DNA of 64,000 nt from contig JAFGDU010000098.1 in the NCBI GenBank assembly GCA_016931915.1, positions 1,728 through 65,727 of the forward strand, written 5' to 3'. The translations under genes were made by a program, and so were the position numbers. Under the pieces are notes generated by a model. It did no database searches. It saw only the letters and a program-made list of their open reading frames with translations, and had not been told where the DNA came from. Positions 8,788-38,855 of the stretch are shown piece by piece; within the stretch, counting starts at the first letter, position 1; each line of letters begins with the position of its first letter. The stretch comes from Actinomycetota bacterium. GTDB lineage: Bacteria > Actinomycetota > Geothermincolia > Geothermincolales > RBG-13-55-18.

Positions 8788-8802
8788 ACCCGCCTTTGCG
8801 AT

Positions 8803-22393: not shown

Positions 22394-22463
22394 GGGGTCG
22401 TATCTTTATTTTTGAATTCACAACCAGAAATTGTCAGGCTATTCAAGAATAAAGATGTGACCC
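22394..22463 (+). repeat. family A hairpin element, copy A1
   Basis: GGGGTCGTATCTTTATTTTTGAAT-tcacaaccagaaattgtcaggct-ATTCAAGAATAAAGATGTGACCC. Confidence 0.9.
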
Positions 22464-22721
22464 TGGAGCCGGACATTGGGTTTGGACAACTCGACCCGCC
22501 AGTTGGATGGTAAGATATTGGCATCAGGAGGTTCATATGAGGGATTTCGACTGATGTTTGTTGCAGGAAACGGAAATGGAAAATAGCAACTCACAGCTAG
22601 AAAACAATCTCTACGGGCAAAGTCCCGTAAATTGGTGCATCATACTCAGAATACTGATATCAGGTAGTGTATTTGGAAAACCCCTGGTTAATCAAGGCTC
22701 TTACAATACCAGGAGGTTGCC

Positions 22722-23516
22722 ATGATAAGTTACAAAGAGTTACGAACGGTTACACCACACGATCCATTCATGTCTGGAGATAACCTTTCCTATTTTGTGG
22801 TAGCTTATTTCCCCAAAGCGGATCTCATGAGGATCTTGCGGAGGGGGATGTCTATACCTTCTGAAGAGATCATGGCCAGGGAATTCCCGACTGCAAAGCA
22901 GAGGAAGGGTATGATCCCGTTCTTGACCCTGTACAGCAGGTGCAACAATGTCCGCGAGCATATCTTCGATGTCACCGTGCGTCCGTACCTGGAGATCAAT
23001 TTCTTTTTCCCGGTCATTTACACCTACAAGGGCGAGGAGCATCTGTGCTCGTTCATGCCACTGCTCTACCTCGATCGCCTTTTCCACACAGTTGGCGGAT
23101 GCCTGCTAGGCTTGCGCAAACAATTCCACCCCAACTTGAGATTCACGGAGACCGACACGTTGTGCTCTTTCCATCTCGAAAACATCCTCAGCGCGAGTTT
23201 TCCGGATGATTCGATGCAAGAGGTAGATGAAGTCGACCCGTTCATCACGCAGATATTCAGAAAGCCGACCCTGACCTATTCCTATTTCCACAAGACCGAC
23301 TTCTACACGACGCAAGTGTTTGATGCCAAGAAGGTGTACAGAGCTTCGGCTGACTTCGAATGGAACTGCAAGGGCACCGTGATCAAGAGCGACGAGCATA
23401 CCTTCTGCAACTTCGCCGAGTACAGCTTCACGGTTTCACGGGCCATGAGCTACAAGAAATACTTCTACCCGAAATACCCTGTAGATTGGGAGCAAATAAC
23501 GGAGATCCAGATCTGA
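22722..23516 (+). CDS. hypothetical protein on a low-GC insert; possible acetoacetate-decarboxylase-like fold
   Basis: 264 aa. AGGAGG 5 nt before the ATG. 41 G+C in the first 100 nt, versus 71/100 at 21961-22060. The pattern YLEINFFFPV..LLYLDRLFHTVGGCLLGLRKQF..ETDTLCSF resembles ADC-family blocks (from memory only). Confidence 0.6.
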   Translation: MISYKELRTVTPHDPFMSGDNLSYFVVAYFPKADLMRILRRGMSIPSEEIMAREFPTAKQRKGMIPFLTLYSRCNNVREHIFDVTVRPYLEINFFFPVIYTYKGEEHLCSFMPLLYLDRLFHTVGGCLLGLRKQFHPNLRFTETDTLCSFHLENILSASFPDDSMQEVDEVDPFITQIFRKPTLTYSYFHKTDFYTTQVFDAKKVYRASADFEWNCKGTVIKSDEHTFCNFAEYSFTVSRAMSYKKYFYPKYPVDWEQITEIQI

Positions 23517-23541
23517 TCCCTTACGAGCTCGCGAAATAATA

Positions 23542-23612
23542 GGGGTCATATCTTTATCTTTGAAATCACGACCAGAAATTGCCAGATAATTTAAAAATAA
23601 AGATGTGACCCC
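23542..23612 (+). repeat. family A hairpin element, copy A2
   Basis: GGGGTCATATCTTTATCTTTGAAA-tcacgaccagaaattgccagataa-TTTAAAAATAAAGATGTGACCCC. TA on both flanks. Confidence 0.9.
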
Positions 23613-23650
23613 TATAGTTTAGAAGACGCGGTTCCCGCCTCTGAGAATGT

Positions 23651-23691
23651 AAAAAAACCAGGCCGGGGCATATACCCTCTGACCTGGTTTT
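23651..23691 (-). terminator. intrinsic terminator after the tRNA cluster
   Basis: Minus strand reads AAACCAGG-tcagagggtatatgccccgg-CCTGGTTT followed by TTTTT, 4 nt after the tRNA-Phe 3-prime end region. Confidence 0.55.
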
Positions 23692-23695
23692 ATGG

Positions 23696-23771
23696 TGGTG
23701 GCGAGAGAGGGATTTGAACCCCCGACGCCAGGATTTTCAGTCCTGCGCTCTACCAACTGAGCTATCTCGCC
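23696..23771 (-). tRNA. tRNA-Phe (GAA)
   Basis: Reverse complement GGCGAGATAGCTCAGTTGGTAGAGCGCAGGACTGAAAATCCTGGCGTCGGGGGTTCAAATCCCTCTCTCGCCACCA. 76 nt, anticodon loop CUGAAAA, encoded CCA. Confidence 0.95.
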
Positions 23772-23804
23772 TCTAGATATATAGACTCCCGTGGGAGTAA
23801 ATAT

Positions 23805-23882
23805 TGGCGGAACCGACGGGATTTGAACCCGCGATCTCCGGCTTGACAGGCCGGCGTGTTAACCTGGCTACACCACGGCTCC
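23805..23882 (-). tRNA. tRNA-Asp (GTC)
   Basis: Reverse complement GGAGCCGTGGTGTAGCCAGGTTAACACGCCGGCCTGTCAAGCCGGAGATCGCGGGTTCAAATCCCGTCGGTTCCGCCA. Anticodon loop CUGUCAA. Confidence 0.9.
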
Positions 23883-23963
23883 GCGAAAAAACCTGCTGTG
23901 GGGGCCGTTCGGGCCCCAGCAATTATATTATATTAAGTTGTCACCCCGGACAATCTTAACACC

Positions 23964-24039
23964 TGGTGCCCCCAACGGGATTTGAACCCGTGTCACCGCC
24001 TTGAAAGGGCGATATCCTAGGCCTCTAGACGATGGGGGC
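23964..24039 (-). tRNA. tRNA-Glu (TTC)
   Basis: Reverse complement GCCCCCATCGTCTAGAGGCCTAGGATATCGCCCTTTCAAGGCGGTGACACGGGTTCAAATCCCGTTGGGGGCACCA. Anticodon loop CUUUCAA. Confidence 0.95.
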
Positions 24040-24256
24040 ATACATCAAATCGTATGCGCTACTTACACCTGCATATATGATAACATCCCTGCCGGGATGT
24101 GCCCTGACCCAGGCCATAAAGATTTAAGCATCTTGGCAGTTCAATATCAATCCTTTTTGACCGATAAGTGAGGTGGGAGACGATATATGGGTTTTCCCGC
24201 CAGGAAAGGGCTTATTTTTATCTCAAGAGCCCTGCTGTTGCAAAGGACGAGTCCCT

Positions 24257-26434
24257 ATGGAAGATAGCAATAAACGGGATATAGAGCAGAAGGGGGGCGC
24301 CGACATCACGGGGGGTGATGAGGCACGGCTGAGGTCCGTCGTCGATATCTTCTCCCGCCTGTCCATCGCCTGCAAGTCCCGCATGCTCTATCCTGCGGAG
24401 CACCCCACCGCCATCGACACGGTGGTCCTGCTGCATGCCGTGATGGAGGACTCCCTACGCACCATACCCAGCATAGCGGTGAAGGTCGGAAAGGACAGCC
24501 TGGTCTACGAGAATTGGGTGGTGGGGCGCAGGATGGAGAGCCTGCGAGCCCTGGCCTCGCGTATCCGCTCCCTGAACATACAGGAGATATTCATCGATGC
24601 AGGCGCATCCTTCCAGGAGGCCGAGGCCTTCGTGGAACTGCTGGTCTTCGACCCCGAGGAACTGGAGAAGGTCGGGGGGGCGGAGGCCTTTTTAACCGCC
24701 AAAGGAGTTCACAGCATCGTAGTGGCAGAGAGCGAGGCCCAGAGGGCGGAGGAAGAGGATGCGGAGGCAGAACTTATCGCAGAGGAACTGGCGACGGCGC
24801 CAGAGGAGATAGAGAGACCCGAGGCCGCCTCCCCCGAGGAAGTAGGGGACTTACTCGAGTTGCTGCTCAACCCCGAGGAACTCGGCCGGGTGCTCATGGC
24901 GTTAACTGGCAAGGACGGCAAGCCCCTGGGCAAGAAGGAACTGGCCGGCGCCATCTTCTTCTTTCTAAAGGATGCCAACGCGATCGTGAGAAGCGAGTAC
25001 CCGGAAAGGCAGGAGGAGTGTTGGCGCTCGATGGCGGAATCCCTGCTCTTCCTGAATGCTGACGTGCGCAACCTGCTTCTGCTCGGCTATCTCTTCCCCC
25101 AGCTGCGGGAAGAGCCCGTATGCTCCGAGATCCTCAAGCAGTTCAACGCCCAGGAGATGGCCGACCTGCTGAGCATCTTCCTTCCCATCACGCCCGAGCT
25201 CACCCCAAAGACGGGGAGCCTGCTCAAGGCCATAGGTTTCCGAGATGGAGAGATCCGCAATACCCTGAGGCTGCTGCGCGCTAAACTGGTGGACCTGGGA
25301 CAGATACCCACCTCACTGCTGGAACCACTGGAAAAAGGGCTCGAGAGGGGCAGGCCCAAGAGCCAGCCCTCCACCAGACTCCCGACTTTCGAGGATATTA
25401 TGTCGTGCCTGGGTGAATACCGGCCCGAGGAGCTGGACGAGATCCGGCTTATCTCGGTCTACGACCCGTCCCTTGATATGATGGCGGAAACCACCCCCAT
25501 GCTCCTGGGCCTGCTGAAGGAGGGAGGCGACCTGGACAACTCGGGCAAGGTCGTGGAGCTTCTGCAGCAGAATTTCTGGGGTCTTGCCATGTCCGCGCAA
25601 TTAGACCTGGCGGCATCGGTGCTGGAGGGCACGCGCGAGATACTGCAGAACGGCGACCCGAATATCGACCCCTTCCGCTCCGAACTCAAACGCATGTTGG
25701 AGGAGGCGGCCAGCGAAAAGGCCATGAAGAGCACCATCGCGGCTGCCTGCAGACGGCGTGGTAATCCTCAGGCGGTGGAGGCACTCAAGCGCTACATGGC
25801 CGCACTGGGCGAGAAGGGGCTCGCCGCAATGGTCGAGGCCCTGGGTGCGGAGGAGGACATGTCCGTGCGTAAATATATAGTCGACGTGCTCACCGCCATG
25901 TGCCGCGACCGCGTCAGCCTCCTGGGTGCTTACGTGGACGATCCGCGCTGGTACCTGGTGCGCAACGTCGTATCCATCATGGCCAGGTTCCATGACCCGG
26001 AGACCATCCCCTATCTGCGCCGCACCTTCTTCCACCCCAACCCCAAGGTGAGATCGGAGACCATCCGCGCCCTGGGTTTGACCGGCGGCTATGGGGCGAG
26101 CGAGCTGCTCATGCAGGGGCTGCAGGACCCGGACGAGAGGATGCGCATCCTGTGCATCCGCTGGCTGGGAAGGCTCGAGGAGGTCCGGGCGGTAAGCCAC
26201 TTGATCATGATGCTGGAGGACAAGGAACCTGGCGGTGAGAGCATGGACGTGAAGAAGGAGATCCTGCTGAGCCTGGGCGAGATCAAGGCCCCTGAGAGCT
26301 ACGAGGTGCTGAGAAAATACAAGATAAAACAGAAAAGGTTCAGCCGTGCAGAATGGCAGGAGCTGAACGAGGCGGCAGCCCAGTCGCTGCAACGGCTGGA
26401 GATAAAATTCCCCCACCTGGAGAGAAGAAGATGA
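24257..26434 (+). CDS. HEAT-repeat protein with N-terminal domain paralogous to the downstream HD-GYP protein
   Basis: C-terminal HEAT/PBS-lyase-like repeats (DPRWYLVRNVVSIMARFHDPETIPYL, NPKVRSETIRALG, DPDERMRILCIRWLG). ATG 24257 (MEDSNKRD); the ORF is open from 24173. Confidence 0.65.
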   Translation: MEDSNKRDIEQKGGADITGGDEARLRSVVDIFSRLSIACKSRMLYPAEHPTAIDTVVLLHAVMEDSLRTIPSIAVKVGKDSLVYENWVVGRRMESLRALASRIRSLNIQEIFIDAGASFQEAEAFVELLVFDPEELEKVGGAEAFLTAKGVHSIVVAESEAQRAEEEDAEAELIAEELATAPEEIERPEAASPEEVGDLLELLLNPEELGRVLMALTGKDGKPLGKKELAGAIFFFLKDANAIVRSEYPERQEECWRSMAESLLFLNADVRNLLLLGYLFPQLREEPVCSEILKQFNAQEMADLLSIFLPITPELTPKTGSLLKAIGFRDGEIRNTLRLLRAKLVDLGQIPTSLLEPLEKGLERGRPKSQPSTRLPTFEDIMSCLGEYRPEELDEIRLISVYDPSLDMMAETTPMLLGLLKEGGDLDNSGKVVELLQQNFWGLAMSAQLDLAASVLEGTREILQNGDPNIDPFRSELKRMLEEAASEKAMKSTIAAACRRRGNPQAVEALKRYMAALGEKGLAAMVEALGAEEDMSVRKYIVDVLTAMCRDRVSLLGAYVDDPRWYLVRNVVSIMARFHDPETIPYLRRTFFHPNPKVRSETIRALGLTGGYGASELLMQGLQDPDERMRILCIRWLGRLEEVRAVSHLIMMLEDKEPGGESMDVKKEILLSLGEIKAPESYEVLRKYKIKQKRFSRAEWQELNEAAAQSLQRLEIKFPHLERRR

Positions 26435-27879
26435 ACCGGGAAGAGACCGAAGGTATGCAGGAGACAACGAACCGTAAACAAGAAGCCCTTGCCTACTTCC
26501 ACGCCAAAGGGCAGATGGAGCGGGCGCGGGAGGTGTTGAAGCTTTTCTCCGGTGCCAAGAAATCCGCCTCCATATATCCTCCGAACCACGAGATCTGCAT
26601 CAATTCCTTCACCGATTTCATGCGCTCCTTCAAACAATACCTGGCCTGGCAGGAGCAGTTCTCGCTGCGCATCGTGGGCGAGGAGTTCTTCTACGAGGAG
26701 AAGCTCATGCCCAGGGAGAGTGTCCTCTATTACCCCCTGATCAAGGAACTCAAGGACAAGGAGATAGGCGGCATCACCATCTTGGGCGGACTGACGCCGG
26801 GAGAATTTGTCGACTTCCTCTATCTCTTGAACCTCAGCGCGGAGGAGCTGCGGGCCAGGGGCGGCCTGCAGCGCCTCATGGAGCAGAGAGAGGTCGTCAA
26901 TATCACCCTGGACGAGCCGGGGACCTGGGAGGAAAGATCGCCCGAGATAAAGGAGAGGGGCTCGGCGCGCGAGGAGTATTTCGATGCCGTGGACGTTATC
27001 CGGGAGCTGGCCGACCAGGTGATGAGCGACCGCCGCCTCTCGGTGAGTAAGGCAAACCGCGTGGTGGGCGTAATGCTCAACCGCGTAGGCGAGAACCGCT
27101 CCGCAGTGCTGGGGCTGGCGACTATCAAGAACTATGACGAGTACACCTCCTTCCATTCCGTAAACGTCCTCATCCTCTCCCTCGCGCTGGGCTCCATGCT
27201 GCCCCTCGACCGCAGTTCCCTGATGATCCTGGGCACGGGGGCGCTACTGCACGACCTGGGAAAGATAACCATTCCGCAGAGTATCCTCAACAAGACCGGC
27301 CCCCTCACCACGCCCGAATGGCAGATGATGCAGGACCACCCGGTCAGGGGAGCCGACATCCTCATGGCACAGCCGGGCGTTCACCCCCTTTCGGTGATGG
27401 TGGCCTACGAGCATCACGCCCGCTACGACCTGACGGGCTATCCCAAGATCAAGTATAAGGACAGCCTCGGGCTCTTCTCCCGTATCGTGGAGGTCTGCGA
27501 CGTCTACGACGCCATGACTTCCGCGCGCCCTTACCAGAAGGCGCGCACTCCGGACCAGGCCATGCGCGTTCTGGTCAAGGACATGAACACCGTCTTCGAC
27601 CCCCTGATGGTGAAGGTCTTCGTGGACATGATGGGGGTCTTCCCAGTGGGCACCCTGGTGCGCCTGGCCACGGGCGAGGTGGCGGTCATTTACGAACCCG
27701 GGGAGAGCGACGCAATGTGGCCGCGGGTGAAGGTGATCCGCGACCCCGAGGGCGGTGAGATAGAGCCGCGCATCGTAGACCTCCTGTACATGAAGGAAAA
27801 GATCGGGGAGACGGGGCAGGCCATCCTGGAGTCCATCCACCCCGAGGATCTTGGCATCGATCCCCTGGAATACCTGTAA
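26431..27879 (+). CDS. HD-GYP domain phosphohydrolase (putative c-di-GMP phosphodiesterase)
   Basis: ATGA overlap with the upstream stop. HDLGK...HHARYDLTGYP signature. Confidence 0.85.
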   Translation: MNREETEGMQETTNRKQEALAYFHAKGQMERAREVLKLFSGAKKSASIYPPNHEICINSFTDFMRSFKQYLAWQEQFSLRIVGEEFFYEEKLMPRESVLYYPLIKELKDKEIGGITILGGLTPGEFVDFLYLLNLSAEELRARGGLQRLMEQREVVNITLDEPGTWEERSPEIKERGSAREEYFDAVDVIRELADQVMSDRRLSVSKANRVVGVMLNRVGENRSAVLGLATIKNYDEYTSFHSVNVLILSLALGSMLPLDRSSLMILGTGALLHDLGKITIPQSILNKTGPLTTPEWQMMQDHPVRGADILMAQPGVHPLSVMVAYEHHARYDLTGYPKIKYKDSLGLFSRIVEVCDVYDAMTSARPYQKARTPDQAMRVLVKDMNTVFDPLMVKVFVDMMGVFPVGTLVRLATGEVAVIYEPGESDAMWPRVKVIRDPEGGEIEPRIVDLLYMKEKIGETGQAILESIHPEDLGIDPLEYL

Positions 27880-27880
27880 G

Positions 27881-28741
27881 ATGTTACCTGAAGTGTTAAC
27901 GCAGGATATCGGCGAAGTGGAGCTGCAGTACCTGCATTACCCCGGTGACGGGCCTGCCTTGGTATTGCTCCACGCCACCGGTTTCCTGCCCTGGCTCTGG
28001 CACCCCATTGCCAGGGAACTGGTTGGGGATTTCCGCGTCATCGCCCCCTATTTCTGCGACCACAGGGTCTTCGATCCCGAGGAAGGGGGCTTGAGCTGGC
28101 TTCTCCTGGCCAGCGACCTCACGACCTTTATCAGGCGCCTGGAAATCGACGAGCCCTATATCGTGGGACATTCCATGGGAGCCACCGTCGCCGCGATCGC
28201 CGAAGCACACATGGGCCCGCTGGCATCCCGCATGATGCTCATCGAGCCCATCCTCCTGCCCTCGGGTTTCTACGAGGCCGAGATAACGGTCGAACAGCAT
28301 CCGCTGGCCTCGAAATCCATCCGGCGCCGCAATGCCTGGAGCGACGAGGAGGAAGCCAGGGAGTACCTGGGCGAAAAAGACCTCTTCGCGAACTGGGACC
28401 GGGAGATGCTCGACCTGTATCTCCAGCACGGTATGAGCGAGGCAGACGGCGGCGCACTCACCCTGGCCTGCAGTCCCCGGCGGGAAGCGGCGCTCTTCAT
28501 GGGGGGCATGGAGATAGACCCCTGGCCGCTTCTGGAGAAGGTCGCCTGCCCCGTTCTCCTCGTGGAGGGCGAGAAAAGCGAGAACAGGCTGGTGATAGAC
28601 CTGAGCCGTGCGGCATCCATCATACCCAATGCGGACCTGGAGGTGGTTACGGACGCCCGGCACCTCGTGCCCATGGAGAAGCCCCGCGAGGTGCTCGCCC
28701 TCATACGAGAGTTTGGGGTCAGCCGTTCAATCGACACGTAG
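27881..28741 (+). CDS. alpha/beta hydrolase; last 8 codons and stop lie inside MITE B1
   Basis: HATGF oxyanion region and GHSMGA nucleophile elbow. ATG 27881, 1 nt after the upstream stop. The C-terminus GVSRSIDT* is encoded by the element TIR. Confidence 0.8.
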   Translation: MLPEVLTQDIGEVELQYLHYPGDGPALVLLHATGFLPWLWHPIARELVGDFRVIAPYFCDHRVFDPEEGGLSWLLLASDLTTFIRRLEIDEPYIVGHSMGATVAAIAEAHMGPLASRMMLIEPILLPSGFYEAEITVEQHPLASKSIRRRNAWSDEEEAREYLGEKDLFANWDREMLDLYLQHGMSEADGGALTLACSPRREAALFMGGMEIDPWPLLEKVACPVLLVEGEKSENRLVIDLSRAASIIPNADLEVVTDARHLVPMEKPREVLALIREFGVSRSIDT

Positions 28742-28888
28742 GGTCACGTGTCCATATGCTTTCCAGCCGACAATCCGGCAGTTCCCCATAATAATCAGCG
28801 GCTAAAATGTGGTGCTCCTTCGTCAGAATATATACTGGTAATAGTCCGTGTACGCCTGACCCTACGTGTCGATTGAACGGCTGACCCC
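28715..28888 (+). mobile_element. family B MITE-like element, copy B1 (174 bp)
   Basis: Perfect 32-nt TIRs GGGGTCAGCCGTTCAATCGACACGTAGGGTCA / TGACCCTACGTGTCGATTGAACGGCTGACCCC. No ORF inside. Confidence 0.9.
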
Positions 28889-30115
28889 ATCTTGCCAGAG
28901 GATGCGTACGCGTGCGAAGAGGACGGTGGATACCACCACACAAGCCAGGGCCAGGACCCAGGCCCAGAAATAACTCTCCGACAGGTCGTAGATTAACCCG
29001 GTGATCACCGGGCCGGCCGCGCCCCCCAGCGCCCCACCCGTGGTGACCGCCCCGAAAATGGCCCCCATGTTGGCCTTGCCGAAGACCTCCGCGCACACCG
29101 CGGGTATAACCGGCCCGTATGCCGCATACCCGAAGCCGAATATGGCCGCGAAGACCATGAGGGACCACACCTCGCGCACGAAGATGAGGATGCCCACGCT
29201 TACCAGCAGCACGGCGCAAGCGGGATAGAGCGCGTTCTTCTTCTCCTGCGTGTGGTCCGAGAGCCTGCCGAAGAAGAACCTACCCGCGATGGAGGTGGCT
29301 CCGTATACCACTATCGACCACTCCGCCCAGGACTTGGAGATACCATGGTCCGTGGCGTACGGCACGAGGTGGACCATGACGCCGTACATGGCGATGACGA
29401 TGAGGACGAAGCCCATGAAGAGCAGCCAGAATGAAGATGTGCGCATGGCTTCCCGCAGGGTGAGACCACCCGGGAACGAGGCGGGGGTGGCGGGTTGTTC
29501 TCCCGCCGCTGATTCCCCCTCGTCGTCGGAAGGCTTCTCCTTCGGTCTCAGCAGGAAGAAAGCGGGTATGGTGAGGGCGATGGCCACGTAGCCCAGGAAC
29601 TGAAAGGATGCCCTCCAGTCCCACTGCGACTGCACCACCCCGGTGAGGCGGGGGAGGATCATGGTACCGAAGCCTATACCCATGGTGGCTATGCCCAGGG
29701 CCAGGCCCAGGCGGCGGCGGAACCACATGGTAACCGAGGTGTTGGAGGGCACGAGCCCGATGCCGTTTCCCCCGATACCGAAGACGATGCCGAAGAAGAA
29801 CACCAGGGCGAAGAGGCTCTGTGAGCGCGAGCACATCCACAGGCCCACCCCGGAGATGAGGGCCCCTCCCACCATAACCCAGCGCGGGCCGTAGCGGTCC
29901 ACCAGCCTGCCGGTGACCGGCGCCAGGAAGGCGTAGACCAGCACGCAGATGGTGAAGGGCAGGGACGCCGCACCGCGGCCGATATCCAGGTCCTCTGAGA
30001 ACCCCTTGATGAGCACGGTTTGGGTGGCGCGCACGCCGTAGTTCACGAACATGACCATGAAGGCCACGCCCACGACCACCCAGCCGTAATACAGCTTCTG
30101 CCGGGTCTCGCTCAA
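28862..30115 (-). CDS. MFS transporter (oxalate/formate antiporter-like); last 8 codons inside MITE B1
   Basis: 417 aa, about 12 hydrophobic helices, N-terminus YYGWVVVGVAFMVMFVNYG. C-terminus GVSRSIDT* is read from the other TIR. Confidence 0.75.
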   Translation of the reverse strand: MSETRQKLYYGWVVVGVAFMVMFVNYGVRATQTVLIKGFSEDLDIGRGAASLPFTICVLVYAFLAPVTGRLVDRYGPRWVMVGGALISGVGLWMCSRSQSLFALVFFFGIVFGIGGNGIGLVPSNTSVTMWFRRRLGLALGIATMGIGFGTMILPRLTGVVQSQWDWRASFQFLGYVAIALTIPAFFLLRPKEKPSDDEGESAAGEQPATPASFPGGLTLREAMRTSSFWLLFMGFVLIVIAMYGVMVHLVPYATDHGISKSWAEWSIVVYGATSIAGRFFFGRLSDHTQEKKNALYPACAVLLVSVGILIFVREVWSLMVFAAIFGFGYAAYGPVIPAVCAEVFGKANMGAIFGAVTTGGALGGAAGPVITGLIYDLSESYFWAWVLALACVVVSTVLFARVRILWQDGVSRSIDT

Positions 30116-31577: not shown

Positions 31578-31676
31578 GGCGGGATTAATTATAGCATCGC
31601 TGCAAGGCTTCCTGTGTCGAGGCGATACTCGCAATGTCTTGTTTTGGAGCCCGCACATGGGATATATAATGTCTTT

Positions 31677-31753: not shown

Positions 31754-31822
31754 TATGATAGAAGCAGGCCGGGAGGGGTATTTGCCCGGCCTGTTCGCTG
31801 AAGGGACACGCGGCTAAAAGGA

Positions 31823-32296: not shown

Positions 32297-32337
32297 GCAA
32301 AGGGTCGGGTCCAGGAGATGAACACGGAGGGGTTCCG

Positions 32338-33252
32338 GTGAGAAAAAGACCCAAAGATATCCTGTGGTATGTACTGGCCAGGATGTTCTCTCTCTGCCAG
32401 AAGATGGGTGTTAATATCACCCCGGTCCATTACGAATCGACTATTCCCGTGATCGGCGAACTACCCGAAAGCCTCTGGGATAGTAAATCGGAGATGGTCG
32501 GGGTCGATCTCAAAGAGGATAGACAGCTGGAGCTGCTGCGCGAATTTTCCAATAAGTTCAGGAACGAATATGAACGGTTCCCGGCGGAGGACTCCGGCCG
32601 TCCGGGAGAATATTATATGAACAACCGCTTTTTCGCTGGTTATGATGCAAAGACCCTGTACTGCTTCGTCCGGCATTTCAAACCAAAGAGGGTTATCGAA
32701 ATAGGGAGCGGGTACTCCACCCTGATCCTGGTGCAATCTCTGCTCAAGAACAGGGAAGAGAACCCGGATGATGACGGTGAACTGCTGATAATCGACCCAT
32801 ATCCTAGAGACTTCGTAAGAGAGTGCTCTACCGCTCTCAGGTCATCGTTGCGGGAAACGAGGGTCCAGGACATAAGCCTTTCCGAGTTCGATGCACTGGG
32901 AGCCGATGATATCCTCTTTATCGACTCCAGCCATGCCCTCTGCATCGGTAGCGACGTGCAGTACGAGATACTAGAGATATTTCCCAGGCTGAGACCTGGC
33001 GTCATAATCCAACTGCACGACATCTTTCTGCCCGGAGAGTATCCACGCAGTTGGGTAATGGACAGGGTGAGATTTCTGAACGAGCAGTATCTCCTCCAGG
33101 CCTTCCTCGCCTTCAACCGGCAGTTCGAGGTACTGCTTGCACCACGTTATATTTACTTTTCTCGTCCCGTGGACTTGTATCAAACCCTTGGAACAGAGCG
33201 CGAAAATTTCGCGCTACCTGTAAGCTTCTGGCTGCGCAGGATGCCTGACTGA
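32338..33252 (+). CDS. class I SAM-dependent methyltransferase (Methyltransf_24-like), lower-GC gene
   Basis: GTG 32338 after GGAGGGG (track ORF open from 31954). Motif I VIEIGSGYSTL, then DILFIDSSH. 50 G+C per 100 nt at 32401-32500. Confidence 0.6.
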   Translation: MRKRPKDILWYVLARMFSLCQKMGVNITPVHYESTIPVIGELPESLWDSKSEMVGVDLKEDRQLELLREFSNKFRNEYERFPAEDSGRPGEYYMNNRFFAGYDAKTLYCFVRHFKPKRVIEIGSGYSTLILVQSLLKNREENPDDDGELLIIDPYPRDFVRECSTALRSSLRETRVQDISLSEFDALGADDILFIDSSHALCIGSDVQYEILEIFPRLRPGVIIQLHDIFLPGEYPRSWVMDRVRFLNEQYLLQAFLAFNRQFEVLLAPRYIYFSRPVDLYQTLGTERENFALPVSFWLRRMPD

Positions 33253-33253
33253 T

Positions 33254-33324
33254 GGGGTCGAATCCCGGTAATCGAGTTTTCACCCATTATCTGGCAGATT
33301 TCTCGATTATCGAGACCCGACCCC
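33254..33324 (+). repeat. family A hairpin element, divergent copy A6
   Basis: GGGGTCGAATCCCGGTAATCGAG-ttttcacccattatctggcagatttc-TCGATTATCGAGACCCGACCCC. 71 bp, starting 2 nt after the methyltransferase stop. Confidence 0.7.
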
Positions 33325-33330
33325 ATTTAG

Positions 33331-33360
33331 TTGACAAAGAGGCACTATTGGATATTTAAT
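33331..33360 (+). promoter_or_regulatory. candidate promoter of the marR-like gene
   Basis: TTGACA (33331-33336), 18-nt spacer, TTTAAT (33355-33360). An ATTTA-atgtg-TAAAT palindrome overlaps the -10 region. Confidence 0.35.
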
Positions 33361-33414
33361 GTGTAAATAGTTTGTATATAAATAATATGGCTCCGAAATA
33401 ACAGGAGTACGGAC

Positions 33415-33909
33415 ATGGCGGGCGAGAGCGAAAAGCAGGCAAACGGTTTCGAGAAGATAGTGAATGCCGCCATGAGCATCGCGGAGACGTGGAACGAAAA
33501 GACCAACAACTGGCTGCGGGAGAAACACATCACCTTCGTGCAGTTCAAAGCGCTCCTGCTGCTGAGCGAGCAAGAGAAACAGACGCTGAGCCAGCTTAGC
33601 GACGGGCTGTCACGTACCCGCTGCACCATCACCGGGCTCGTGGACAGGCTCGAGGACAAAGGCCTGGTGAGAAGGAAACGCAGCCGCAAGGACAGGCGGC
33701 TGATATACGTATCCCTCACCGACAAGGGGAGGGAGCTGGCAGTGGAACTGAAGGAAAAGGTAGCCCCGGAGATATCGAAACTGGGAGAAATGATAATGGG
33801 CAAGCTCACGGACTCGGAGGCCGCGGCCTTGTATGGCGCTCTGAACAAGCTCAGCACCGGCATAGGTGAGGTCCAGATACGCAGCATAGCAATGGAGCAA
33901 GAGATCTGA
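33415..33909 (+). CDS. MarR family transcriptional regulator
   Basis: Winged-helix block FKALLLLSEQEKQTLSQLSDGLSRTRCTITGLVDRLEDKGLVRRKRSRKDRRLIYVSLTDKG. Confidence 0.85.
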   Translation: MAGESEKQANGFEKIVNAAMSIAETWNEKTNNWLREKHITFVQFKALLLLSEQEKQTLSQLSDGLSRTRCTITGLVDRLEDKGLVRRKRSRKDRRLIYVSLTDKGRELAVELKEKVAPEISKLGEMIMGKLTDSEAAALYGALNKLSTGIGEVQIRSIAMEQEI

Positions 33910-33912
33910 AGC

Positions 33913-35199
33913 ATGGGAATCGCAGACTTTAAACGCAGGACGAAAAACAGCAAGACGGAGGACAAGGGTTATACGCCGGACTCTAAAGCAGAAGTCCAAG
34001 GCAGCAGCGCCAGCGAACCGACGGCCGCGCCCCACATGTATCATCATGGGGATGTGGACGGGGATGCGAGGGAAAGCGTGGTGGTCCCGCAGCCGGACGG
34101 CAAATGTATAACCGAGATAGGCGCGCGGCTCCGCGATATCCCCTTCTCCCCGCAGCGGCCTTACCTGCTCAGCCTGGCCGACGCGTACCGGCCGGATCTT
34201 TCGAAGATAAACCTGGACAGGCGCGGCTCCAAGCCGGACGACGTCCATCCCTATCCCGAGGGATTCGAAAAGGTGGTCTTTCCCAGCCTGGACGGCACCC
34301 CCCTGGTGGGGGTCCTGGGGGTGCACCGGGACGGCAGAAAAAGGCCGGGGGTGGTTTTCGCCCACGGTCTCCTCGGCTCCAAGACCAAAAACTACATACT
34401 GGAGGCCGCCCTGGAGGCCTATTCTTCCTGGGATTACAACGTCTTCGCGCTGGACATGCGCAACTTCGGGGAGAGCCAGTGGCTCTCTAACTCTCCTACC
34501 ACTGGGGGCTGGAAGGAAGGCCAGGATATCCTCGGCGCCTGCCGCTTTCTGGGCGAAGTGGAGGAGGTGACCAGCGTAGCCGCCGTGGGGTTCAGCCTGG
34601 GCGCCGGCTCGGTGGTCAACGCCGCCTATCAATGCCGGCAACATCCGTACATCACCGGGGGAGCCATGGCCTGGAGCAGCTATGCCTCCATGGAAAAGAT
34701 GATGTCCCTCATGAGCAGCCGCCCCCCGCTGGGCGATCCATTCTTACCCATCTACATGGCTTTCTTATGTCTTACCGAGATACGCCGCCTGGAAATACGC
34801 CGTCAGATGAGCAAGGAAGCCGCCAGCGCCTACCTGGGCGACAAGCCATTCTCCCCGGATTACAGGCGGTACATACGGGAGATATCCGCCCCCCACTACG
34901 GCCTCGACGAGGAGACGATGTACGCCCTCTCCAGCCCGAAGGAATTCATATCCCAGGTGGACGTGCCGCTGATGCTGGTCCACGCCGAGGACGATCCCGT
35001 CTGCCGCGTCGAGGAGATGGAGGAGCTTCGCCGCTCCGCCGGAGGCAACCCCAACGTCGACATCTGGGTGCTGCCGACCGGCTATCACTGCGGTTTTAAG
35101 GGTTTCGACCAGGATTGGTACTGGTCCGTGATGCGCACCTTCCTCGACTACTGGGCGGACCGGACCGAGGAAGCCGATTCAGCCGCGATAGCATCCTAG
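33913..35199 (+). CDS. alpha/beta hydrolase
   Basis: 428 aa. FAHGLLG, nucleophile elbow GFSLGAG, late HAEDDP and GYHCGF. The stop TAG overlaps the first G of hairpin A3. Confidence 0.75.
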   Translation: MGIADFKRRTKNSKTEDKGYTPDSKAEVQGSSASEPTAAPHMYHHGDVDGDARESVVVPQPDGKCITEIGARLRDIPFSPQRPYLLSLADAYRPDLSKINLDRRGSKPDDVHPYPEGFEKVVFPSLDGTPLVGVLGVHRDGRKRPGVVFAHGLLGSKTKNYILEAALEAYSSWDYNVFALDMRNFGESQWLSNSPTTGGWKEGQDILGACRFLGEVEEVTSVAAVGFSLGAGSVVNAAYQCRQHPYITGGAMAWSSYASMEKMMSLMSSRPPLGDPFLPIYMAFLCLTEIRRLEIRRQMSKEAASAYLGDKPFSPDYRRYIREISAPHYGLDEETMYALSSPKEFISQVDVPLMLVHAEDDPVCRVEEMEELRRSAGGNPNVDIWVLPTGYHCGFKGFDQDWYWSVMRTFLDYWADRTEEADSAAIAS

Positions 35200-35269
35200 G
35201 GGTTACATCTTTATTTTTGAATTCGTAACCAGAAATTGGCAGGCTATTCAATAATAAATATGTGACCCT
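35199..35269 (+). repeat. family A hairpin element, copy A3 (degenerate arms)
   Basis: GGGGTTACATCTTTATTTTTGAAT-tcgtaaccagaaattggcaggct-ATTCAATAATAAATATGTGACCC. Confidence 0.85.
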
Positions 35270-35304
35270 CAAACCATTTCTCGATTTTAAGGACCTGACC
35301 CCTT

Positions 35305-35892
35305 ATGATGGACACGCGGGAGGTGATACAGGTGGTAATGGAGACCGCGAAGCCGGACATGTCCTGCTATCCCTTCAGGAGGAAGAAGCTCTACCTGGCC
35401 ATAGTCATACCTTATGTTACAGTTCTCGCCGCGGTCTTCTTCTATCTCCTGGCCAGGAAGAGCGCTCCAGGGGCAGGCAAGCGCTATTTCCCCGGCCTTA
35501 CATTCCTGTCCTTTTACCTGGGCATTTGCTATTTCCAGGCCTACTGCTGCGCCTGCCAGGAATGTCCCTACATAGGGGAGTTCTGCCCCGCCCTCGCGGG
35601 CATCTATCCGGCCAATACCCTGGCCAGAATGGAGTACGGAAAGAAAGGGGCAGTAAAACCAGAGGAAGCCTTCAAGGCCAACGCCACCGCGGCTGCCTTC
35701 TGCTGGGGCGGCATGGTGCTCTTTCCCCTCCCCTGGCTGGCACGGCGGAGCGCCAGGCTGGCCGCCGCATACGTGTTGTTGCACGCCGTCTATTACCTGG
35801 CACACGGGCTTATCCTCTGCCCGGTCTGCGCCATCCGTGATACCTGTCCCGGCGGCATGCTGCAATCGATGGTGCTGAAGCGGAAGGGGTAA
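35305..35892 (+). CDS. hypothetical cysteine-rich integral membrane protein
   Basis: 195 aa with about 4 hydrophobic helices. Cys motifs CYFQAYCCACQECPYIGEFCP and CPVCAIRDTCPGG. Confidence 0.55.
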   Translation: MMDTREVIQVVMETAKPDMSCYPFRRKKLYLAIVIPYVTVLAAVFFYLLARKSAPGAGKRYFPGLTFLSFYLGICYFQAYCCACQECPYIGEFCPALAGIYPANTLARMEYGKKGAVKPEEAFKANATAAAFCWGGMVLFPLPWLARRSARLAAAYVLLHAVYYLAHGLILCPVCAIRDTCPGGMLQSMVLKRKG

Positions 35893-35898
35893 GGGGCC

Positions 35899-36123
35899 TT
35901 GAAATGTAGAAAGTGCGGGGCATGCTGTATCGCCCTCTCCATATCGTCGCTGAACAAACCGGCGGGAGTGAGGTGCGAGCATCTCACGCAGGAAAACCTG
36001 TGCGCGCTGTGGGGCAAGCCGGAGAGGCCGGAGGTGTGCTCGGCGTACAAGCCCGACCCCCTCTTCTGCGGGAACAGCTTCGAAGAGGCGCTGGAACTCA
36101 TGCGCGCCATGGAGGAAGGATAG
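35899..36123 (+). CDS. small YkgJ-like cysteine-cluster protein
   Basis: TTG start 6 nt after the upstream stop. KCRKCGACC...CEHL...CALW...PEVCSAY pattern. 74 aa. Confidence 0.55.
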   Translation: MKCRKCGACCIALSISSLNKPAGVRCEHLTQENLCALWGKPERPEVCSAYKPDPLFCGNSFEEALELMRAMEEG

Positions 36124-36163
36124 AAAGCGGCGGCGGTATATACCGAACCGCAGAAAGGAGAAG

Positions 36164-37039
36164 GTGATGAGCGCAGGGCTGCGCGCGGAACTGACCCAGT
36201 CGCTGAGGATGATCGCCTATTCCACGCTGGCCTCTTCCAGATATTATCACTGGATGCTGCGCGAACGTCCCGAGCGCGCAAAGGGCCGTGTCGATATCGG
36301 AGACGCCCGCATCTTCTACCTCTCCTGCGGGCGGGGAGAACCGCTGCTGCTGCTGCACGGCGGTTTCGCCTACGCCGAGACGTGGGTGGGACAGACGCCG
36401 GAACTGGCCCAACGCTACCGGGTGATCGCCCCCGATTCCCGCGGCCACGGCCGCAGCACCCTGGGCACGAAGCCCATCACCTACCGGCAGATGGCGGAGG
36501 ACATGGCGGCGTTGGTGGAGAGGCTGGGCCTGGGCGGCGTCCACCTCATCGGGTGGAGCGACGGCGGCTGCACCAGCCTGGCCATGGCTTTGCAGCGGCC
36601 CGACCTCGTACGCAGCATGGTGCTGCTGGGCACGCCATTCAACACCGATAACTACAGCGCCGAGGGCTGGCGCCAGATGGAGAGCATCCTCGACCCGCGC
36701 TCTCTGTCCATGCTCAGCCTGAGATCCATGCGCCGCATGATGAACCCCGAACCGCACCGGGGCAAAGAGTTCCTGGAGGAGATGTCCCGGATGTGGAGGA
36801 CCCTGCCGGACTTCACTACAGAAGACCTTGGCCGCATCGAGGCTCCGACCCTGGTCATAGGCTGCGACCGCGACGAGTTCCTCTCCCTGTGGCCCGATCC
36901 TCTGCAGGTGTTCAAGGACACCACAGCGGCCATCCCGAACGCCCGGCTGGAGATCGTCAGGGGAGGTACGCACTTCGTAAGCCTGGAACGAGCTCGCGAG
37001 GTCAACCGGCTCATCCTCGACTTTCTCGCCTCCCTCTAG
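36164..37039 (+). CDS. alpha/beta hydrolase
   Basis: LLLLHGGF, nucleophile elbow GWSDGG, late GGTHF. The stop TAG overlaps the first G of hairpin A4. Confidence 0.8.
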   Translation: MMSAGLRAELTQSLRMIAYSTLASSRYYHWMLRERPERAKGRVDIGDARIFYLSCGRGEPLLLLHGGFAYAETWVGQTPELAQRYRVIAPDSRGHGRSTLGTKPITYRQMAEDMAALVERLGLGGVHLIGWSDGGCTSLAMALQRPDLVRSMVLLGTPFNTDNYSAEGWRQMESILDPRSLSMLSLRSMRRMMNPEPHRGKEFLEEMSRMWRTLPDFTTEDLGRIEAPTLVIGCDRDEFLSLWPDPLQVFKDTTAAIPNARLEIVRGGTHFVSLERAREVNRLILDFLASL

Positions 37040-37110
37040 GGGGTCACATCTTTATTCTTGAATAGTCTTCCATTTTCTGGTTGTGAATTCAAAAATAAAG
37101 ATGTGACCCC
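37039..37110 (-). repeat. family A hairpin element, copy A4 (reverse orientation)
   Basis: GGGGGTCACATCTTTATTCTTGAAT-agtcttccattttctggttgtga-ATTCAAAAATAAAGATGTGACCCC. TA on both flanks. Confidence 0.9.
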
Positions 37111-37177
37111 TAATTGGAACACAACACCGTACCCAGGGGTCGAAAGGATGGGGTTAATGAAATCATAAGGAAATACC

Positions 37178-37933
37178 ATGAAAAGGATCGTATTCAAAGC
37201 GTTGACGGTTTTCTTCATCCTGTTCTTCGTCGCCATCGCGATAATCGGATATCTGTTTTATACCGGACGCATGTGGTTCGTCGACCCCCCGCACGACAGG
37301 TTCCCGGTAAGGGGCATCGACGTCTCGGAACACCAGGGGAATATCGACTGGGAAAGGGTTGAGGCAGATGGATTCCATTTCGCCATCATCAAGGCGACGG
37401 AGGGAATGGACCACCGGGACAGCTGCTTCGCCCGCAACTGGGAGGGCGCAAGTAACGCGGGGCTGGCCAGGAGCGCATATCATTTCTTCACCTTTCGCAG
37501 CCCCGGGCTGGAACAGGCGAGGAACTTCATCGCAGTCGTGCCCAATGAACCTGGATGCCTGCCCCCCACCATCGACGTGGAGTTCGGCGGCAACAGCAGG
37601 GAGGTGCCCGACAGAGGGACCTTCACCAAGGAGCTCAAGGATTTCATCGGCGAGATAGAGGTGAACTACGGCACCAAGCCCATACTTTACGTGACCTACG
37701 ACTCCTACGAGGAGTTCATCGTCGGTGATTACGAGGATTGCATCATCTGGATAAGGGACCTCTTCGGATATCCACTACTGGAGGACGAGCGCTGGCTTTT
37801 CTGGCAGTACAACTGCCGCGGCAGGGTCGCGGGCATCGAAGGATACGTGGACCTGAACGTGTTCAACGGCGACCGTGCCGAGTTCGAGCGGCTGCCGCGG
37901 CAGACCGCGGACCAGCCTTCGTCACCCGAGTGA
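37178..37933 (+). CDS. glycoside hydrolase family 25 lysozyme (muramidase), membrane anchored
   Basis: N-terminal TM helix, then GIDVSEHQGNIDWERV...FAIIKATEG...AYHFF GH25 blocks. Confidence 0.8.
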   Translation: MKRIVFKALTVFFILFFVAIAIIGYLFYTGRMWFVDPPHDRFPVRGIDVSEHQGNIDWERVEADGFHFAIIKATEGMDHRDSCFARNWEGASNAGLARSAYHFFTFRSPGLEQARNFIAVVPNEPGCLPPTIDVEFGGNSREVPDRGTFTKELKDFIGEIEVNYGTKPILYVTYDSYEEFIVGDYEDCIIWIRDLFGYPLLEDERWLFWQYNCRGRVAGIEGYVDLNVFNGDRAEFERLPRQTADQPSSPE

Positions 37934-37981
37934 AATAGAATAGTAGCGTTGGTATCGGCGGGATATGGGAGGAGGCCTGAA

Positions 37982-38263
37982 ATGGCGGAATCGGAACCTC
38001 TCGGCTACCGCGTGGTCGGGACCATCAAGAGCGTGAAGGGCGAGTGCGGAGCCGGGCACAAGGAGGGGGATCAGCTGGAGATCAGCGGCTACAGCTCGGG
38101 AGGACTGTGCGGCTTCTTCTACCACGACATCTTCCCCTACCTCATGATGCTCCAGTTCGGCGGGGGCTTTCCCGAGGACTGGGGCGACCCAGAGGTGGTC
38201 GAGCTGGGCTGCGTGGACAAGACGAACATGGTAACCATAGAGCTGAGGCGCGTCAGGGAATAG
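37982..38263 (+). CDS. TIGR04076-family small protein
   Basis: ATG 37982 after GGAGGAGG. C..GH..GD...GGLCGFFYHDIFPYL...FGGGFP...LGCVD...V.IEL pattern as I recall for TIGR04076. Confidence 0.5.
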   Translation: MAESEPLGYRVVGTIKSVKGECGAGHKEGDQLEISGYSSGGLCGFFYHDIFPYLMMLQFGGGFPEDWGDPEVVELGCVDKTNMVTIELRRVRE

Positions 38264-38300
38264 CGGCCTTACTCGAGAAGGCCAGGGGAAGAAGCAGCGA

Positions 38301-38732
38301 TCAGATATCCCTGCCGAAGAGCTGGCAGATCCCCTCGAAACCGTGGTTTTCATAAAAGCGGTGGGCATCTGCACGGTGGAAGGCTGAATCAAGTTCCACC
38401 CTGCGGCAGCCGTCCTTCTTCGCCAGTTCAAGGGCCCGTTCCAGCAGCATACCTCCTATCCCCTCTCCCCTGCGGCTCTCATCGACTACCAGCTCATCTA
38501 CGTATCCCAGGAAGCCCTGCCCCCACAGGCTCTTCCTGACGCTGAGGGAGCAGAAGCCCACGAGCTTGCCCTCGCTCACGGCGCACAAGTAATGTTGGGA
38601 AGCCAGACCCAGGTTGTGGCGGAAGACCTCCTCCAACGCCTCGCGGCCCAGCTCACGACCCGGCCACAGCTGCCGCAGCAACCCGAGGACCGGCTCGAAA
38701 TCATCCTCTATGCACTGCCTGATCTCAACCAT
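38301..38732 (-). CDS. GNAT family N-acetyltransferase
   Basis: 143 aa. RRGEGIGGMLLERALELAKKDGCRRVELD acetyl-CoA-binding block. Confidence 0.85.
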   Translation of the reverse strand: MVEIRQCIEDDFEPVLGLLRQLWPGRELGREALEEVFRHNLGLASQHYLCAVSEGKLVGFCSLSVRKSLWGQGFLGYVDELVVDESRRGEGIGGMLLERALELAKKDGCRRVELDSAFHRADAHRFYENHGFEGICQLFGRDI

Positions 38733-38784
38733 GGTCCTCTTATGATTACGCGCGGCGCAGCACGGCGCAAGACCCGCCTGTCCT

Positions 38785-38855
38785 GGGGGTCACATCTTTA
38801 TTCTTGAATAGTCTGCCAATTTATGGTTGTTAATTCAAATATAAAGATGTGACCC
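38785..38855 (-). repeat. family A hairpin element, copy A5 (reverse orientation)
   Basis: GGGGGTCACATCTTTATTCTTGAAT-agtctgccaatttatggttgtta-ATTCAAATATAAAGATGTGACCC, in a divergent intergenic region. Confidence 0.9.

Follow-up and report, generated by a model that had tools for sequence, protein, structure and literature searches.

The window analysed here, 64 kb of contig JAFGDU010000098.1 from an uncultured Actinomycetota, is ordinary chromosomal DNA of about 60% G+C that carries metabolic and regulatory genes and four tRNAs. Between its genes lie short palindromic hairpins with the ends GGGGTC and GACCCC. We describe these hairpins, their counterparts in related genomes and in metagenomes, and the mobile element from which they probably derive. 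An earlier note, made from the sequence of the window alone, had listed six such copies in both orientations and had taken them for non-autonomous mobile elements.

Six hairpins of 71 nucleotides

The window was searched for hairpin arms with the motif GGGGTCACATCTTTATT, allowing up to 3 mismatches and using shuffled sequences as control. Ten matches were obtained, which correspond to two inverted arms at each of five sites, whereas 0.09 matches were expected from the shuffles, with a maximum of 2. A repeat search recovered the same five sites, here called family A, with copies that are 84–92% alike in reverse-complement register (inverted pairs I1–I5). Two of the copies are 90% alike on the same strand; the 65–68% found for the other three is a cross-orientation figure relative to the reference copy. 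The sixth hairpin belongs to a sister subfamily, A2. By position and strand, the features are:

22394..22464, plus strand: family A copy 1, 71 nucleotides (nt); between divergent genes, a PLDc_N-like open reading frame (ORF) on the minus strand and ORF 22722-23516
23542..23612, plus strand: family A copy 2, 71 nt; 25 nt past the stop of ORF 22722-23516 and before a tRNA-Phe/Asp/Glu cluster; flanks TA...TA
33254..33324, plus strand: subfamily A2 hairpin, the sixth copy of the earlier note, 71 nt; 1 nt past the stop of the methyltransferase-domain ORF 31954-33252; flanks AT...AT
35199..35269, plus strand: family A copy 3; the TAG stop of ORF 33913-35199 supplies its first G; ortholog in the relatives L241 and L242 and in the metagenome contig L234
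35280..35302, plus strand: A2 right-arm remnant CTCGATTTTAAGGACCTGACCCC, 20/23 matches to the A2 arm; just after copy 35199
37040..37110, minus strand: family A copy 4, loop reversed; directly past the TAG stop of the hydrolase ORF 36164-37039
38786..38856, minus strand: family A copy 5, loop reversed; between divergent genes, GNAT and DUF6159

All six complete copies share the geometry GGGGTC-N24-CCA-N5-TGG-N24-GACCCC, with an architecture of 24 + 23 + 24 nt. Folded as RNA, each of them forms one long hairpin of −21 to −40 kcal/mol (z −4.9 to −10.8); for DNA the values are −12.7 to −22.3 kcal/mol (z −4.3 to −9.4), and in neither case did a shuffled sequence fold as well. According to the folding, the arms of family A pair with each other and not internally, and a weak internal complementarity, GTCAA-N10-TTGAC, can be read from the sequences only in the metagenomic AAATC subfamily. 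The hairpins are real and far beyond chance. In its descriptive part the earlier note was accurate: number, length, orientations and consensus of the copies are right, the coordinates are correct within 1 nt, all six copies are strictly intergenic, and the folding check that it proposed returned single long hairpins beyond the shuffles.

Hairpins at such positions could also be structures selected by the host, as terminators, stabilisers of mRNA 3'-ends or protein-binding sites, with cellular function rather than mobility behind their spread. Three of the six copies start 0–1 nt past the end of the upstream gene, whose stop lies at 33252, 35199 or 37039, and copy 35199 is 93–96% identical in L241 and L234, compared with 83–89% for the surrounding DNA (binomial p of about 0.015 for L241). 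Moreover, hairpin terminators that lack a U-tract have been proposed for Actinobacteria. However, two family A copies (22394 and 38786) sit between divergently transcribed genes, and both orientations occur. No T-run follows the stem, on which ground an intrinsic terminator, i.e., a GC-rich stem with a T/U run, was rejected, and a terminator scan of 22000–40200 does not report the hairpins. Transcribed strand and better-folding strand do not coincide consistently, and G·U-compatible changes, taken as a mark of the transcribed strand, were inconsistent across copies. In Rfam, only the four tRNAs were found at gathering score, and a relaxed threshold added only plant microRNA-precursor models with 23–25 bits at cutoffs of 84–90. 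Furthermore, the same arms elsewhere bound a transposase gene and encode its C-terminus. We hence consider it unlikely that a host function has driven the spread of the hairpins, although such a role may hold as a secondary, exapted function; speculatively, copies inserted by stop codons may serve the host as 3'-end RNA hairpins. Promoter-like matches that overlap the elements are weak (9 of 12).

A transposase element with matching ends

A metagenome scan with the pattern GGGTCNNATCTTTA-N35-65-TAAAGATNNGACCC returned at least 120 DNA stretches with at least 127 hairpins of 63–93 nt. Among the matches listed, the arm consensus is GGGGTCAAATCTTTATTCTTGACA / TGTCAAGAATAAAGATTTGACCCC, and the centres vary widely in both sequence and length. 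A contig scan with GGGGTCRYATCTTTAT was unspecific and gave mostly chance matches; L116, L101, L072, L080 and L090 are among the matches listed. In metagenome loci, isolated arms also form pairs 1,068 nt apart. At L156:7297-8366, and as the same element in L169, 1,070 nt with arms at both ends enclose a single ORF of 337 amino acids (aa). This architecture is found again, with equal gene–arm distances, in other organisms (L245/L246 and L247/L248, the latter a Candidatus Aegiribacteria metagenome-assembled genome, MAG). The search for an autonomous parent with the same ends, suggested by the earlier note, thus led to a 1,070-nt element in unrelated genomes, with arms that agree with family A at 21 of 24 positions. 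Wherever arms enclose a gene, in all such loci examined, this gene encodes a Y1/HUH transposase.

The 337-aa ORF matches Pfam Y1_Tnp with an E-value of 1e-13. Its nearest NCBIfam model, 'REP-associated tyrosine transposase', where REP stands for repetitive extragenic palindromic, is a near-miss with 75.1 bits at a cutoff of 80. H60-F-H62 (the HUH motif) and Y119 in RYIHLNP are invariant among 17 homologues of 60–78% identity. An AlphaFold (AF2) model was obtained with a predicted local distance difference test (pLDDT) value of 75.5, and a Foldseek search with this model gave as best match the E. coli TnpA-REP bound to a REP hairpin (4ER8, E 3.8e-5), then the IS608, ISDra2 and IS200 transposases (2A6O, 2XQC, 2F4F). 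In the predicted model, the C-terminal 90 residues superpose on DnaA domain IV (1J1V) with a TM-score of 0.84 and a root-mean-square deviation of 1.6 Å. A profile search also matches 1J1V (E 0.002), PF08299 is present in some homologues, and a sequence search of the PDB with the single 337-aa protein gave no match. Judged by profiles and predicted fold, the protein is a Y1/HUH transposase with a DnaA-domain-IV-like C-terminus. We found 2,383 homologues at E ≤ 1e-10 (90% clusters) and 1,088 clusters at E ≤ 1e-30 (50% representative set), many of them annotated as 'REP element-mobilizing transposase RayT' or 'transposase', from Thermodesulfovibrionales, Desulfobacterales, Syntrophales and Aegiribacteria. 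Several homologues are known solely from contigs of ~1,071–1,081 nt, from which we infer that the ~1.07-kb stand-alone contigs are repeat-collapsed assemblies of a multi-copy element. On plasmids, tblastn gave distant 'transposase' matches alone, with identities of 36% or less.

The arms of this element are more than its borders. At the 3'-end of the L156-type element the arm is coding: ATG TCA AGA ATA AAG ATT TGA CCCC reads M-S-R-I-K-I-stop, which are the six C-terminal residues of the transposase with its stop codon. The arm TCAAGAATAAAGATTTGACCCC accordingly translates into S-R-I-K-I-stop, a C-terminus conserved in the protein alignment, and the family A arm of the window, TCAAGAATAAAGATGTGACCCC, would translate into S-R-I-K-M-stop. 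The other arm (of the pair L156:7297-7320 / 8343-8366, and also in L245 and L247) ends in TTGACA, with TAATAT 16 nt later and the ATG 52 nt from the element end. We read TTGACA in the arm as the probable −35 box of the transposase promoter, with a leader that looks very short or absent. A double duty of the arms as stop-codon end and presumed promoter would help to explain their strong conservation across phyla. Other RAYT-like genes (RAYT, REP-associated tyrosine transposase) have different inverted repeats with the same start, i.e., GGGGTCAGGCATAAC... / GGGGTCAGGCATAACAATC... for a 976-nt element in L157 and GGGGACACC... / GGGGACACCATAC... in L222. These elements with different arms and the same start parallel the families B and A2 of the window.

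Shortened forms of 485, 269 and 92 nt bridge the full element to the hairpins. L072:1536-2020 and L090:1792-2276 (Zixibacteria MAG) span 485 nt and have kept the first ~92 transposase codons between arms GGGGTCACATCTTTATTCTTGA..., which are essentially the family A arms of the window. L165:1346-1616 is a 271-nt transposase remnant with a different arm variant, a further transposase remnant lies between arms in L194, and in L080:6185-6276, a derivative of 92 nt, the inner sequence can be aligned with the left interior of L072.

Elements of this kind have been introduced as TIRtrons. In the original description, the terminal inverted repeats (TIRs) that flank RAYT-like genes, with enzymes named TIRYT, share a GGGGWSAS motif, and some of these TIRs make up repeat families in which dimers or clusters are frequent (Di Nocera, De Gregorio & Rocco 2013, PMC3733652). 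A later classification places most TIRYTs in TnpA-REP subclass 2.1, with a Bac_DnaA_C or helix-turn-helix (HTH) C-terminal extension and the consensus GGGG[AT][CG]A[CG] (Quentin et al. 2018, PMC6006769). In agreement with this motif, the consensus of family A reads GGGGTCAC and that of family B GGGGTCAG. Individual A copies vary at the motif (GGGGTCGT, GGGGTCAT, GGGGTTAC), and A2 copies fit it partially, reading GGGGTCAG, GGGGTCGG or GGGGTCGA. From the match to the published TIRYT signature it follows that the window elements are TIR dimers of the TIRYT class, with an architecture equivalent to REPINs, i.e., inverted pairs of REP units. With a probability of roughly 0.85, the 71-nt hairpins are hence non-autonomous derivatives of a TIRtron, similar to REPINs or to miniature inverted-repeat transposable elements (MITEs). 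The earlier note had proposed a MITE/REP-like non-autonomous element, which stands in so far as the arms are the ends of a Y1-transposase element. It had also recognised no described family. This is true of the exact sequence, which is not in Rfam and for which a literature search with 14-mers of family A gave nothing relevant; the class, however, has been described (PMC3733652, PMC6006769).

A TIRtron is a small mobile element in which a single RAYT-like Y1 (HUH) transposase gene, TIRYT, lies between ~24-nt TIRs that start with GGGGTCA. Each hairpin would then consist of two such repeats joined by a 23-nt remainder of the interior and might be moved in trans by a TIRYT that is encoded elsewhere in the genome or was formerly present. 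In analogy to IS608, ISDra2 and the E. coli TnpA-REP, cleavage could take place at the GGGGWSAS ends on single-stranded DNA at replication forks, and the DnaA-domain-IV-like C-terminal domain could help to bind the arms. A, A2 and B would be lineages in which the arm pairs have diverged together, presumably with different transposase variants.

TIRs around a short non-coding body at intergenic positions would also be found in a conventional MITE, mobilised by cut-and-paste through the DDE transposase of an insertion sequence (IS), either of IS630/Tc1-type with TA duplication or of Tn3-type with GGGG ends. In favour of such an origin, TA...TA flanks the copies at 23542 and 37040 and AT...AT the copy at 33254, and GGGG starts are typical of Tn3-family repeats. 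Such elements, however, leave a direct target-site duplication of fixed length, 2 bp (TA) or, for Tn3, 5 bp. With TA, AT and 5-bp repeats considered, no consistent duplication of any length was found at the flanks of nine A/A2/B elements: TA is present on both sides in just two of the six copies, and no 5-bp repeats flank family B. TA and AT are self-complementary and may merely extend the palindrome, and the gene between the arms is always of the Y1/HUH type, never DDE. An origin from a DDE element is thus highly improbable. In HUH/Y1 transposition, as for IS200/IS605 elements and RAYTs, target-site duplications are absent as a rule, and the lack of consistent direct repeats at the copies is as expected for this mode.

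Further features of the insertion sites bear on a TIRtron origin. On the left side, as defined by the loop, TA stands just before GGGG at five of six independent family A sites, which may point to a short target in the left flank, as in IS608. Between neighbours, the orientation tends to be the same, with 11 direct pairs and 1 inverted among the callable metagenome pairs and 4 and 1 in the window; this fits a strand-specific, replication-coupled insertion. In the metagenome, flanks tend to be complementary rather than directly repeated, with 30 runs of 3 nt or more compared with ~10 expected from a shuffled control. Insertion into hairpins that already existed could account for this. In L146, L165/L238, L210 and L217, the palindrome runs 7–9 nt past the GGGGTC end, in copy-specific sequence.

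Several points weigh against a derivation from a TIRtron. No Y1 or DDE transposase, recombinase or integrase was found by Pfam in the ~40 ORFs of the window, and tblastn with three TIRYT proteins gave nothing in the 64 kb, in line with the earlier note, which had seen no transposase or RAYT gene. A TIRYT gene was likewise not found in ~56 kb of syntenic DNA of four relatives (L240–L244) nor in L101 and L116, two other contigs that belong to a related MAG. The presence of a transposase in this genome is accordingly hypothetical, and the window copies may be fossils. The arms of the 1,070-nt elements (L156/L169, L245/L246, L247/L248) differ from family A at the positions outside the 21 shared ones, and a full-length transposase with exactly the family A (CACATC) arms was not found, as a search with the L072 remnant gave three truncated proteins only. 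Known Y1 enzymes recognise REP or IS200 ends that are small hairpins in themselves; the family A arms are not, so that recognition may be of a folded single strand or of the duplex TIR. The literature searched reports no biochemistry for any TIRYT. Some neighbouring copies also share their flanks, so that the concordance of orientation could in part result from local segment duplication. Finally, sequence divergence of 12–16% blurs the boundaries of presence and absence among the relatives.

Subfamilies A2 and B and their turnover among relatives

In the alignment, the hairpin at 33254 matches the family A consensus at 14 of 24 arm positions without gaps and at 15 of 23 loop positions. The earlier note had called its arms 'entirely different' and had regarded it as a lone covarying variant of family A. 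Neither view holds. At least five further copies of the same type, all of 71 nt, are found in syntenic relatives (L240:6825, L240:10874, L243:574, L243:2782, L243:5854). Degenerate copies occur at L240:3386 and L240:9045, and the consensus is GGGGTCRGGTCTCGATTATCGAG-TTTNCANCCATTATCTGGNAG...-CTCGATTTTCGAGACCTGACCCC. To judge from these alignments, the sixth copy is a diverged homologue of family A and a member of the sister subfamily A2 of related Actinomycetota genomes. A, A2 and the intermediate copy L116:4355-4425 all have the asymmetric loop CA-N-CCA-N5-TGG-N-AG in conserved form. The loop is similar to what directly follows the left repeat of the L072 remnant on its inner side, a likeness that is only suggestive of homology.

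Covariation was counted on an alignment of 15 A and A2 copies, with 500 shuffles. Here, 91.9% of the cells pair, compared with 33–50% when the partner is slid by 1–3 columns; 10 of the 24 arm pairs have changed on both sides, double-sided changes amount to 41 cells, and none of the 500 shuffles matched the covariation score. The concerted change of the two arms is thus confirmed, yet it is essentially a single A-versus-A2 split. To the earlier note it had suggested selection on the structure. However, a need for both arms to match a single binding sequence of the transposase would equally lead one to expect covariation, and therefore the real covariation does not by itself prove selection on the folded hairpin.

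Family B shares the termini GGGGTCA/TGACCCC with family A, with inverted arms of ~40 nt (GGGGTCAGCCGTTCAATCGACAC...) and copies of 173–190 nt. The B-type features of the window are:

28715..28888, plus strand: family B element, 174 nt, arms GGGGTCAGCCGTTCAATCGACAC...
39810..39999, minus strand: family B element, 190 nt, in the opposite orientation to both other B copies
48601..48773, plus strand: family B element, 173 nt; the orthologous L241 site holds a diverged B-like element
8803..8820, plus strand: solo B-type arm remnant GGGGCCAGCCGTTCAATC, in the intergenic gap 8788-8864

The ~40-nt arms of family B hold a second, internal GGGTCA. At L241:23-364 and 9174-9346, sites equivalent to B, several GGGGTCAG... 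arms are nested or adjacent around other inner sequence, resembling the arrays of bacterial interspersed mosaic elements (BIMEs). A, A2 and B are three new subfamilies in an uncultured Actinomycetota lineage.

The window was compared with syntenic sets of ~88% (L240), ~87% (L243 and L244) and ~84% (L241 and L242) nucleotide identity. Copy 35199 occupies the same place in L241/L242 and in L234, with its copy-specific features intact. In the window and in L241, this A copy is followed only by the A2 right-arm remnant. At the same site, L240 carries an A2 copy, then ~5.7 kb of extra genes with another A2 inside, and then an A2 that is the counterpart of the 35280 remnant and in which loop and right arm are complete and the left arm is degenerate. 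Directly behind the stop of the hydrolase gene, a reversed A copy is found in the window and an A2 copy at the orthologous place in L240, L243 and L244; in L241 and L242 the site is empty, with the L241 junction TTTAG-AGGG-TATAAAC. The 1.8-kb block 37045-38885, which comprises A, a GH25 lysozyme gene, GNAT, A and ~30 nt more and is bounded by A copies of the same orientation, is absent in L241. Copy 38786 is absent at the orthologous L240 site, and the methyltransferase ORF 31954-33252 together with its A2 hairpin (~31803-33340) is absent in L241. At orthologous sites, B elements differ in length and arm sequence. L243 contains four A2-type hairpins (three complete, one partial) within 6.2 kb, and the indel boundaries coincide with them. 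Copies have hence been gained, lost and replaced among the relatives, and indel boundaries coincide with copies; for a mobilisation by a TIRYT, these differences are indirect evidence.

Some details of these regions were noted in addition. At L241:8243-8312, the hydrolase gene is directly followed by the DUF6159 gene. The L241 counterpart of 31803-33340 is ~180 nt of unrelated spacer between tRNA-Lys and a MarR gene, and the window region has a G+C content of 0.54. In L240:3386-9115 and L243:574-5924, A2-type hairpins separate gene blocks that have no counterpart in the window (Tricorn-like protease; serpin and sigma-70; a 343-aa ORF). For ORF 22722-23516 (264 aa), which two A copies in direct orientation flank, Pfam and NCBIfam gave no match; the stretch around it has ~51% G+C, compared with ~60% elsewhere, and the ORF looks like a hairpin-flanked passenger gene. 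The same arrangement is found at 99.9% identity in the Logan contig L001 (SRR13394437).

Hairpins that bound variable gene blocks could be recombination sites of a cassette system, in analogy to the attC sites of integrons, with the blocks moved as units. Between relatives, hairpin-bounded blocks do differ (the methyltransferase ORF with A2, A-GH25-GNAT-A, the ~5.7 kb of L240 and the runs in L243), two direct A copies enclose the low-GC ORF 22722-23516, and conserved ends around a variable centre recall attC. The ~40 window ORFs, however, include no integrase, nor does the window contain an attI-like site, and the ends GGGGTCA/TGACCCC are unlike the attC core (RYYYAAC ... GTTRRRY). Both orientations occur, and elsewhere the arms are tied to the Y1 transposase gene. 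The block boundaries can be explained by homologous recombination between 71-nt direct repeats or by an intergenic insertion bias in a variable region. Without an integrase and with the wrong core sites, the integron reading was rejected, and we give almost no credence to cassette sites of this kind.

A related proposal keeps the HUH transposase. The hairpins could be preferred entry and exchange points, at which whole gene blocks are gained, lost and swapped through the HUH transposase or by hairpin-targeted recombination, amounting to a cassette-like gene flux in these Actinomycetota. This would follow from the repeated occupation of exactly the same sites past stop codons by different subfamilies (A and A2; B and the diverged B-like 'B2' of L241), and from the same-orientation copies that bound the variable blocks (A-GH25-GNAT-A, the methyltransferase ORF with A2, A2-block-A2 in L240 and L243, and ORF 22722-23516). 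We regard such exchange points as doubtful, if conceivable.

A few further observations concern neighbouring genes and other contigs. A cluster of tRNA-Phe, tRNA-Asp and tRNA-Glu (23696-24039, minus strand) lies immediately downstream of family A copy 2. The product of ORF 36164-37039 has an identical protein in an Actinobacteria bacterium MAG and distant homologues in Actinomycetota MAGs, Candidatus Solincola and Anoxymicrobiaceae. In the segment 42705-43281, which has no L241 counterpart, a short direct repeat is found at 43205-43235 / 43282-43312 (CCTCACGCGCATCACCCCTT..., 87% identical, 77 nt apart). Among viral contigs, the pattern GGGGTC-N24-CCA-N5-TGG-N24-GACCCC gave no match, and the arm pattern gave one related 65-nt hairpin on an IMG/VR contig (L119:4283-4347). 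This contig has two related hairpins (4283-4347 and 489-545) whose arms are of the type GGGGTCAAATCTTTATT; one of the two lies just behind the stop of an ORF. The contig may be a misclassified cellular fragment or a phage that carries the element.

Comparison with known repeats and implications

With the published TIRtrons, the elements described here share the GGGGWSAS ends, TIRs that flank a RAYT-like Y1 transposase (~330 aa) with a DnaA_C/HTH-like C-terminus, and repeats that are dispersed, dimeric and clustered. The published set comprises 26 genes, mostly from cultured Proteobacteria and Acidobacteria, and its TIR families are called 'moderately abundant', whereas the present copies are from an uncultured Actinomycetota. 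The window dimers, moreover, differ in their fixed 71-nt geometry and their conserved asymmetric loop. The 1,070-nt element with GGGGTCAAATCTTTATTCTTGACA arms, in which the last motif base is A and not S, its range across phyla and the deletion series are not contained in the parts of PMC3733652 and PMC6006769 at our disposal.

REPINs (Bertels & Rainey 2011, PMC3116915; Nunvar 2010, PMC2817692) likewise consist of an inverted pair of units with a short spacer that forms one hairpin, they are intergenic and multi-copy, and an IS200-like Y1 transposase flanked by hairpin units accompanies them, with no target duplication. In contrast, the GTAG or CGTC tag of REPs and REPINs is not found at or next to the window termini GGGGTCA/TGACCCC, and the family A unit is not itself an imperfect palindrome of 20–40 bp. 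The transposase here has an additional, predicted C-terminal DNA-binding domain. The parent element is compact and IS-like, the stop codon of its gene and a promoter-like −35 hexamer lie within its repeats, and it often appears as a stand-alone contig of ~1.07 kb. IS200/IS605-family elements and their gene-less derivatives (IS608, ISDra2; palindrome-associated transposable elements) have in common with it the HUH/Y1 fold, the lack of target-site duplication and an orientation bias of neighbours; their ends, however, are non-identical sub-terminal hairpins without TIRs, compared with the 24-nt inverted repeats seen here. MITEs of DDE-type IS (Nezha, Correia/NEMIS, RUP) resemble the hairpins as non-coding elements of 70–190 nt with TIRs that lie near genes and can fold as RNA. 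The hairpins differ from them in lacking a target-site duplication and in having a tyrosine HUH transposase, not a DDE enzyme, as partner.

The class to which the window hairpins belong has thus been known since 2013, and the particular members are new. TIRYT elements were named in that year from 26 genes and have hardly been studied since; in the literature searched, three papers use the term. The present case supplies a candidate pair of substrate and enzyme, a 24-nt arm with GGGGTCA end and a Y1 transposase of 337 aa whose tail resembles DnaA domain IV. For the TIRYT family as a whole, it provides evidence of a very large size, of a distribution over several phyla and of a deletion series down to hairpins of 63–93 nt. 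To the description of the class it adds arms that overlap the stop codon and a presumed promoter, the replacement of subfamilies at the same site, and the concordant orientation of neighbours. It also accounts for a class of striking palindromes between genes, which genome annotation could otherwise take for regulatory RNAs. In uncultured Actinomycetota, the hairpins shape the local genome, where genes end on them and subfamilies replace each other at one site.

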